Origin: Escherichia coli
GTDB lineage: Bacteria > Pseudomonadota > Gammaproteobacteria > Enterobacterales > Enterobacteriaceae
NCBI RefSeq assembly: GCF_030013595.1
Contig: NZ_CP122768.1
Length of the DNA stretch: 64,000 nt
Reading direction: 5' to 3' (one strand)
The position numbers and the translations under genes are program-made. Under the pieces are notes generated by a model. It did no database searches. It was not told the DNA's origin and saw only the letters and a list, made by a program, of their open reading frames with translations. Shown in pieces: positions 56,989 through 57,408 of this stretch; position 1 is the stretch's first letter, and every line of letters begins with the position of its first letter.

Positions 56989-57064
56989 TGGAGCGGGAAA
57001 CGAGACTCGAACTCGCGACCCCGACCTTGGCAAGGTCGTGCTCTACCAACTGAGCTATTCCCGC
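56989..57064 (-). tRNA. glyV: tRNA-Gly (anticodon GCC), copy 1
   Basis: Reverse complement gcgggaatagctcagttggtagagcacgaccttgccaaggtcggggtcgcgagttcgagtctcgtttcccgctcca: cloverleaf with GCC anticodon and CCA end; which of the three copies is glyV/X/Y is assigned by position only. Confidence 0.95.
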
Positions 57065-57099
57065 TTGGGTGGTCTGTGCTTTACAGCACTTTCAAATTT

Positions 57100-57175
57100 T
57101 GGAGCGGGAAACGAGACTCGAACTCGCGACCCCGACCTTGGCAAGGTCGTGCTCTACCAACTGAGCTATTCCCGC
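57100..57175 (-). tRNA. glyX: tRNA-Gly (anticodon GCC), copy 2
   Basis: Identical 76-nt sequence to copy 1, 35-nt spacer. Confidence 0.95.
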
Positions 57176-57332
57176 TTAATCTTCGTCTTTCGAACCGCTA
57201 CTGCCTTGGCTGCCTTCACTCACCTTAGTCACTTACTTTTGTAAGCTCCCAAGGATTCGTTCAGTTGCCGCCTTGTCGCAATTCGAAATACTGCGATTGG
57301 GTGGTCTGTGCTTTGCAGCACTTTTCAAATTT

Positions 57333-57408
57333 TGGAGCGGGAAACGAGACTCGAACTCGCGACCCCGACCTTGGCAAGGTCGTGCTCTACCAACTGAGCT
57401 ATTCCCGC
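57333..57408 (-). tRNA. glyY: tRNA-Gly (anticodon GCC), copy 3
   Basis: Identical 76-nt sequence, 157-nt spacer from copy 2. Confidence 0.95.

Follow-up and report, generated by a model that had tools for sequence, protein, structure and literature searches.

In Escherichia coli, tRNA precursors mature through RNase E cleavage after the CCA and RNase P cleavage at the tRNA 5′ end. The closest described system to the locus considered here is the K-12 operon glyV-glyX-glyY, which encodes tRNA-Gly3 (GCC) and lies between orn and datA/queG. The activity of its promoter, PglyV-X-Y, has been demonstrated experimentally in K-12, and TglyV-X-Y, which overlaps DnaA box 1 of datA, permits read-through (PMC10950094). 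In K-12, this glyVXY read-through determines when during the cell cycle IHF binds at datA (Kasho et al. 2024, PMC10950094).

ERIC/IRU elements are imperfect palindromes of about 120-127 bp, which are intergenic, transcribed and present in multiple copies, and whose definition includes a TA dinucleotide or target duplication at both ends (PMC2229807, PMC3184786). Short, internally deleted forms of this family are also known. A non-tRNA segment cut from a polycistronic tRNA precursor has been described in 3′ETS-leuZ, which acts as an sRNA sponge (Lalaouna et al. 2015, summarised in PMC8166272). Here we describe the glyVXY locus in a 64,000-nt stretch of E. coli DNA (hereafter, the window), where, as we consider highly probable, an ancient ERIC in the glyV-glyX spacer forms a transcribed hairpin that is under constraint yet dispensable, in a cluster that recombines unequally and has a leaky end at datA.

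The glyVXY operon and the adjoining datA region

ARAGORN finds three tRNA genes in the 64-kb window, every one a tRNA-Gly(GCC) gene on the minus strand: glyV (57333-57408, with the CCA encoded), glyX (57100-57175) and glyY (56989-57064). Each gene scores 69.1 bits with the Rfam model RF00005 (gathering score 29), and an exact-string search finds the 76-mer three times in identical copies, which is far beyond chance. The preliminary description had reported three identical 76-nt copies with spacers of 35 and 157 nt and had suggested tRNA prediction on the minus strand as a check; the ARAGORN coordinates agree with it exactly, the spacers measure 35 nt (57065-57099) and 157 nt (57176-57332), and both ARAGORN and the Rfam tRNA model call the genes.

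A 1101-nt query around the cluster has matches in 5,425 of 5,426 complete E. coli genomes and is 100% identical to a RefSeq chromosome that carries, in order, queG, an 18-aa hypothetical protein, three tRNA-Gly genes, orn and rsgA. The annotation of this record places orn (oligoribonuclease; 57619-58164, minus strand) upstream of the operon, and the convergent downstream neighbour is queG (55580-56719, plus strand), which also appears in the list of open reading frames. K-12 (J53) and B (C41(DE3)) have three genes each with spacers of 36 and 35 nt, and when they are aligned with it, the window differs by a single base in spacer 2 and by a 121-nt insertion just before glyX. Apart from one base, the window agrees with K-12 in its tRNA sequence, its promoter, its leader and trailer, and spacer 2, whereas the glyV-glyX spacer is 36 nt long in K-12 and 157 nt long in the window. 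Judged by sequence and gene order, the locus is the E. coli orn-glyV-glyX-glyY-datA-queG region, i.e., an ordinary and already well-known glycine-tRNA operon, as the preliminary description had expected.

The repeats at this locus generate spurious open reading frames and collapsed or broken assemblies. The plus-strand frames over the cluster (119, 93, 83 and 48 aa), already suspected to be spurious, have no match in a Pfam search and no RefSeq annotation. A permissive Rfam search of 55500-59000 returned only the three tRNAs and a sub-threshold match to YrlA (Y RNA-like; 57012-57150, minus strand; 40 bits vs. a gathering score of 69), which covers parts of two tRNA genes and spacer 2 and most probably arises from the tRNA-like domain of that model as an artefact.

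Just after orn lies a predicted promoter of the stable-RNA type that would serve all three tRNA genes (57457-57516, minus strand), recognised by reading of the sequence, by conservation and from the K-12 literature. It comprises an A/T-rich UP-like tract (57500-57516), the -35 element TTGCAG (57488-57493) followed by a 16-nt spacer, a perfect -10 element TATAAT (57466-57471) and the GC-rich discriminator GCGCCTCCC (57457-57465), all on the minus strand. The promoter core, a 21-mer (CTCGTATAATGCGCCTCCCGT), is preserved throughout the enterobacterial genera examined. A consensus promoter scan did not recover the operon promoter because the -35 element matches the consensus at only 3 of 6 positions.

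A CGUAA...UUACG hairpin, seen in the sequence and in the fold of the whole tRNA precursor, lies in its 5′ leader (57409-57456, minus strand). In spacer 1, a conserved 36-nt part (57297-57332, minus strand) is identical to the entire K-12 glyV-glyX spacer; there the CCA is followed by AAAUUUGAAAA and then by the small predicted hairpin GUGCUGCAAAGCAC (57308-57321, minus strand). The 35-nt spacer 2 (57065-57099, minus strand) likewise carries a AAAUUUGAAA motif and a small hairpin at 57076-57089. These homologous 35/36-nt segments, located 3′ of glyX and glyV in the direction of transcription, account for the repeated flank (57062-57100 and 57294-57332, 87% identical without gaps). The preliminary description had stated that the sequence around each tRNA copy is repeated; the repeat is real, but it exists in two copies rather than one per tRNA, and 3′ of glyY there is a unique trailer (datA) instead.

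The small hairpin has 5 bp and lies about 11 nt past each internal CCA. Different genera have covarying versions of the stem (GUGCU/AGCAC, GUAUC/GAUAC, GUGUC/GACAC, GACGU/ACGUC and GGCU/AGCC), and the AAAUUUGA stretch that precedes it is near-invariant among them, while the spacers of 23-27 nt in Klebsiella and Kluyvera are without the hairpin. The small spacer hairpin may be a determinant of tRNA-precursor processing.

By its motifs, the region directly 3′ of glyY, which the preliminary description had missed, is datA, in the arrangement given in PMC10950094. A predicted operon attenuator (56933-56970, minus strand), made up of a weak hairpin (56940-56963) and a U-run (56933-56939), overlaps DnaA box 1, ATATCCACA (56962-56970, minus strand), which was located by a DnaA-box search. 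The datA core, identified from its motifs and from PMC10950094, extends over 56721-56903 and includes a perfect DnaA box, TTATCCACA (56895-56903, minus strand), an IHF consensus, TATCAATAGATTA (56826-56838, plus strand), and DnaA boxes beside the queG stop (56733-56741, minus strand, and 56721-56729, plus strand). Downstream of glyY, four DnaA boxes with at most one mismatch occur within 250 bp, out of 19 in the whole 64 kb. A terminator scan did not recover the weak attenuator. After the last tRNA gene, a DnaA box and a hairpin are conserved in the enterobacterial genera seen, but not in Mixta.

The window has the same promoter, attenuator over box 1, IHF site and DnaA boxes as the datA/DDAH system of PMC10950094. 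However, that work used K-12, which is without the ERIC, whereas the window has a 121-nt hairpin inside the transcription unit. Within datA, RefSeq annotates the 18-aa hypothetical protein (56702-56755, minus strand), whose frame runs into the 3′ end of queG; a putative gene, yjeV, has been described at the position of this frame (PMC10950094).

The ERIC/IRU element in the glyV-glyX spacer

The preliminary description left the 157-nt spacer unexplained. The two spacers are unequal because a 121-nt ERIC/IRU element (57176-57296, minus strand; the length includes one copy of a 2-bp duplication) lies inside the glyV-glyX spacer, so that the 36-nt K-12 spacer plus 121 nt gives the observed length. 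This explanation is what the analysis adds to a set of textbook tRNA genes, and it draws on the indel relative to K-12 and B, the fold, dispersed copies, orthologues and covariation.

The whole 157-nt spacer is predicted to form a long imperfect hairpin (-51 kcal/mol, z = -4.9). For the 133-nt stretch 57172-57304, the tRNA-sense strand gives -45.3 kcal/mol (z = -4.75), vs. a weaker -35.1 kcal/mol (z = -2.5) for the antisense strand. When the whole 476-nt precursor is folded, the ERIC keeps its own hairpin domain. An Rfam search over 57176-57332 gave nothing at E ≤ 1, and no curated Rfam family covers the insert.

Dispersed, diverged copies of the insert (60-80% identity) are present at a median of 7 per E. 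coli genome. The four inspected copies each lie in an intergenic region (puuC-puuR, acpH-queA, psuT-yeiL and ybhI-ybhJ), align end to end with the 121-nt insert (canonical length 127 nt) and share the same fold architecture, with z = -3.4 to -8.2. Two of these four contain the ERIC1R and ERIC2 primers exactly, whereas the insert agrees with ERIC1R at 16 of 22 positions and with ERIC2 at 19 of 22. Over its full length, the insert is about 76-78% identical to canonical E. coli ERICs with both exact primers.

The insert is flanked by a 2-bp repeat, AA...AA on the tRNA-sense strand and TT on the plus strand, at the site of the TA of canonical copies; in several other genera the flanks read CCTA|ATC...GAT|TA. 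By its length, its long imperfect palindrome, its GAGCUUAC...AAGUAAGUGACU core, its copy number and its intergenic site, the insert is an ERIC/IRU element, albeit one whose flank departs from a clean TA. Short, internally deleted forms, as known for the family, also occur at the glyVXY locus.

We note differences between the insert and the ERICs described so far. First, it has CCUU/AAGG where the ERIC consensus has CCCC/GGGG, and its termini are AATC...GATTAA. Second, the insert lies between two tRNA genes, whereas ERICs usually lie beside mRNA genes. Third, it is orthologous across genera and forms its own covariance-model subgroup, in contrast to generic ERICs. Among the papers open to text search, none links ERIC with glyV or glyX.

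From these features a route for the transcript can be proposed. The transcript from the glyVXY promoter would end at the leaky attenuator over the first datA DnaA box, and the ERIC would be transcribed inside the tRNA precursor, where it would fold as a separate long hairpin domain. An RNase E cut in the AU-rich AAAUUUGA stretch after each CCA, together with RNase P cleavage at the 5′ end of the next tRNA, would then release the ERIC. The element would in this respect resemble 3′ETS-leuZ, an analogy drawn for an ERIC that is known from its sequence, and it may influence tRNA yield or datA read-through.

Distribution, age and loss of the element

Among 5,426 complete E. coli genomes, about 1,605-1,636 (30%) carry the insert at the glyVXY locus, whereas K-12, B and O157 are without it. 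The same allele in more than 1,600 complete genomes speaks against an assembly artefact. Matches of the 1101-nt query annotated as tRNA-Gly (x2) were rejected as 2-copy alleles, being artefacts of joined BLAST pieces (C41(DE3), one such case, has three genes). Since joined repeated pieces can mimic 2-copy alleles, a query made of the unique flanks only was adopted, with which the locus is intact in 5,413 E. coli genomes.

In a spread sample of 60 genomes, 59 of them usable, the cluster is 299 nt long (the K-12 form) in 36 and 420 nt long (the window form) in 20; lengths of 415, 187 and 410 nt were found in one genome each. A 2-copy allele in PK8276 and a 4-copy allele in SCU-485 were confirmed by annotation. 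Copy-number change, which the preliminary description had considered possible and had proposed to compare across strains, is therefore real but rare, with such alleles roughly at the percent level in E. coli. The 415-nt case, an O111:H8 strain, has a full 157-nt ERIC spacer with three substitutions, and its 5-nt deletion lies in the datA flank rather than in the tRNA cluster, since glyY begins 5 nt nearer to queG. In strain 2013C-3181 the spacer measures 84 nt, the ERIC having lost its central 73 nt but not its two ends. The E. coli ERIC alleles at the locus are 2-3 substitutions apart, in addition to this internal-deletion derivative.

Records labelled as plasmids also match the locus, in 9 places with the 1101-nt query and in 2 with the flank-only query. 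In a separate observation, a gene for a periplasmic arginine-binding (ArtJ-like) protein lies between orn and the tRNA-Gly promoter in 2013C-3181, in Escherichia sp. MOD1-EC7003 and in one metagenome contig (99% amino-acid identity). A version of about 56% amino-acid identity is found in K. oxytoca and, among the matches listed, in about 20 metagenome loci; neither the window nor most E. coli have the gene.

When the GTDB species representatives, one genome each, were scanned for the ERIC core with a tRNA-Gly 5′ end 40-65 nt further on, 22 genomes from about 12 genera were returned, with the same orientation throughout. These comprise Citrobacter (8), Klebsiella oxytoca and K. spallanzanii, Escherichia whittamii, three further Escherichia species and the E. 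coli representative, Enterobacter asburiae, Kluyvera, Pluralibacter, Superficieibacter, Silvania, Yokenella and an Enterobacteriaceae MAG, as well as Mixta theicola (Erwiniaceae) from outside the Enterobacteriaceae. Wherever enough sequence is stored, orn and/or queG lie beside the cluster. The place of the ERIC in the cluster varies by taxon: it lies in spacer 1, in spacer 2 or in both, in the leader in C. amalonaticus, and in all three spacers of the four-tRNA cluster of Mixta.

The orthologous copies share AATC...GAAGATTAA termini and CCUU/AAGG (consensus CCCC/GGGG), which are absent from generic ERICs, and they exist in genus-specific variants. With a covariance model built from these copies, cluster copies score 130-154 bits (the window copy, 154 bits, is the single match in the window), vs. 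88-97 bits for generic E. coli ERICs and 24-51 bits for deleted remnants. The simplest reading of these sequences is that one ancient insertion, before the enterobacterial genera diverged, was followed by vertical inheritance and then by unequal exchange within the cluster; on this reading, the K-12 form most simply represents a derived loss. The term ancestral is used here by parsimony across the genera found, because the species scan returns only ERIC-positive genomes.

The ERIC would thus have entered the tRNA-Gly cluster before the genera split, and the K-12, B and O157 lineages would have lost it cleanly, either by a precise deletion across the hairpin or by a crossover in the 15-nt identity of the two short spacer segments. 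Units of 111/112 bp, each a tRNA plus a spacer, would recombine unequally to give the 2- and 4-copy alleles, and the same process would relocate the ERIC-bearing spacer within the cluster and mix the 35- and 36-nt spacer variants.

Since the species scan can find only ERIC-positive genomes, metagenome contigs were scanned with the promoter 21-mer CTCGTATAATGCGCCTCCCGT, which needs no ERIC, yielding at least 120 loci. Single-tRNA contigs, 19 among the matches listed, were left out as probable collapsed repeats. Among the matches listed, 48 distinct complete clusters (at least 2 tRNAs) include 10 with a full ERIC, 8 with a remnant only (10 by the covariance model) and 28-30 that are empty, and the remnants retain the 3′ end of the ERIC. 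The spacer combinations of the E. coli-like clusters among the matches listed, i.e., (36,36), (35,35), (36,35) and (157,35/36), are direct evidence of continuing unequal exchange. Because both complete loss and internal deletion are common, the ERIC is dispensable, and losses on this scale speak against an important function. ERICs with internal deletions, which leave spacers of 77-88 nt, are found repeatedly in several genera, including C. amalonaticus; in every case the two termini persist, as does the near-invariant 3′ tail AGACGAAGATTA(A/T), which abuts the tRNA 5′ end.

Constraint on the element and its meaning

Compared with other genera, the 121-nt ERIC of the window shows 84-93% identity, vs. 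60-72% for the orn-glyV intergenic region with the promoter, 64-77% for the glyY-queG intergenic region (datA), 60-70% for synonymous third positions of orn and 53-62% for those of queG. The ERIC is therefore better conserved across genera than the flanking non-coding DNA and synonymous sites, with the caveat that part of the cross-genus similarity could reflect recombination via the 100%-identical flanking tRNA genes. RNAalifold, applied to 24 distinct orthologous sequences, gave a consensus structure of 28 pairs, 7 of which have compensatory double changes, with the caveat that paired changes in a quasi-palindrome can come from template-switch repair between the arms, i.e., a mutational bias. 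Pairing extends to 97.6% of cells in this structure, and 30 cells have changed on both sides; none of 500 shuffles reaches the observed values, and slid controls give 0-2 such pairs. Several of the conserved pairs are G-U on the tRNA-sense strand.

Conservation where the element is present, together with frequent clean loss, fits a conditional constraint, in which a broken hairpin in the tRNA precursor is harmful and the lack of an insert is harmless. Selection would then preserve the hairpin and the sequence of the ERIC wherever the element persists.

A possible, though in our judgement doubtful, alternative is that the spacer holds a selfish or neutral MITE remnant, whose conservation and covariation come from template-switch correction and from interspecies exchange of the cassette via the tRNA genes. 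The patchy distribution with its many losses and internal deletions would be expected of such a remnant, and exchange is made plausible by the 76-nt flanks, which are perfectly identical in all taxa, and by one non-coli Escherichia spacer that is 100% identical to that of the window, whereas the orn synonymous third positions are only 90% identical. However, the genus variants track taxonomy, Escherichia being nearest to the window, followed by Citrobacter, other genera, Klebsiella and Mixta. Template switching, moreover, would be expected to perfect the palindrome, whereas this one conserves G-U pairs and bulges, and the short spacers between the same tRNA genes are less conserved than the ERIC.

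We regard it as rather unlikely that the ERIC spacer is a functional RNA or cis-element under selection, whether as an insulator of precursor folding and processing, as a stable excised spacer RNA, or as a modulator of datA read-through and thereby of the timing of DnaA inactivation. The conservation does exceed that of synonymous sites, flanking non-coding DNA and even the functional datA region, and the compensatory pairs are, like the numerous conserved G-U pairs, specific to the tRNA-sense strand. The unpaired 3′ tail GAAAGACGAAGAUUA(A/U) is near-invariant and is retained even in deleted remnants, and the element has one orientation in all taxa. Read-through from the promoter governs IHF binding at K-12 datA (PMC10950094), and an excised tRNA spacer with a function (PMC8166272) offers a possible precedent by analogy. 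However, the element is missing from about 70% of E. coli and, among the matches listed, from about 60% of metagenomic clusters, and K-12, in which datA regulation was established, is itself without it. The constraint may also be family-wide rather than specific to this locus, since the conserved core is the core of all ERICs, and stable internal tRNA spacer fragments had not been reported (PMC8166272).

A recent insertion into one E. coli lineage, with K-12 as a never-occupied site, is very improbable and was rejected: the clean 121-nt indel with its 2-bp duplication does resemble a fresh MITE insertion, but at least three further Escherichia species and about 11 further genera carry the same diverged copy at this locus with identical orientation, the E. 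coli alleles are already 2-3 substitutions apart with an internal-deletion derivative among them, and no near-identical donor copy was found elsewhere in E. coli genomes.

Returning to the ancient, constrained yet dispensable ERIC, we put forward as an unlikely extension that it has been domesticated as a structured RNA module, kept through Enterobacteriaceae history for precursor processing, as a stable spacer RNA or for tuning of datA read-through. If so, the natural ERIC-positive and ERIC-negative alleles of E. coli would differ in tRNA-Gly supply or in the control of replication initiation. The function of ERICs is a question that has stood since 1990-91, and the glyVXY copy is an unusually tractable test case, because it combines an abundant, well-studied transcript with cross-genus orthology, measurable structural constraint and a 30% vs. 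70% polymorphism in E. coli. As the element lies inside the transcription unit whose read-through times IHF binding at datA, K-12 may not represent a third of the species.
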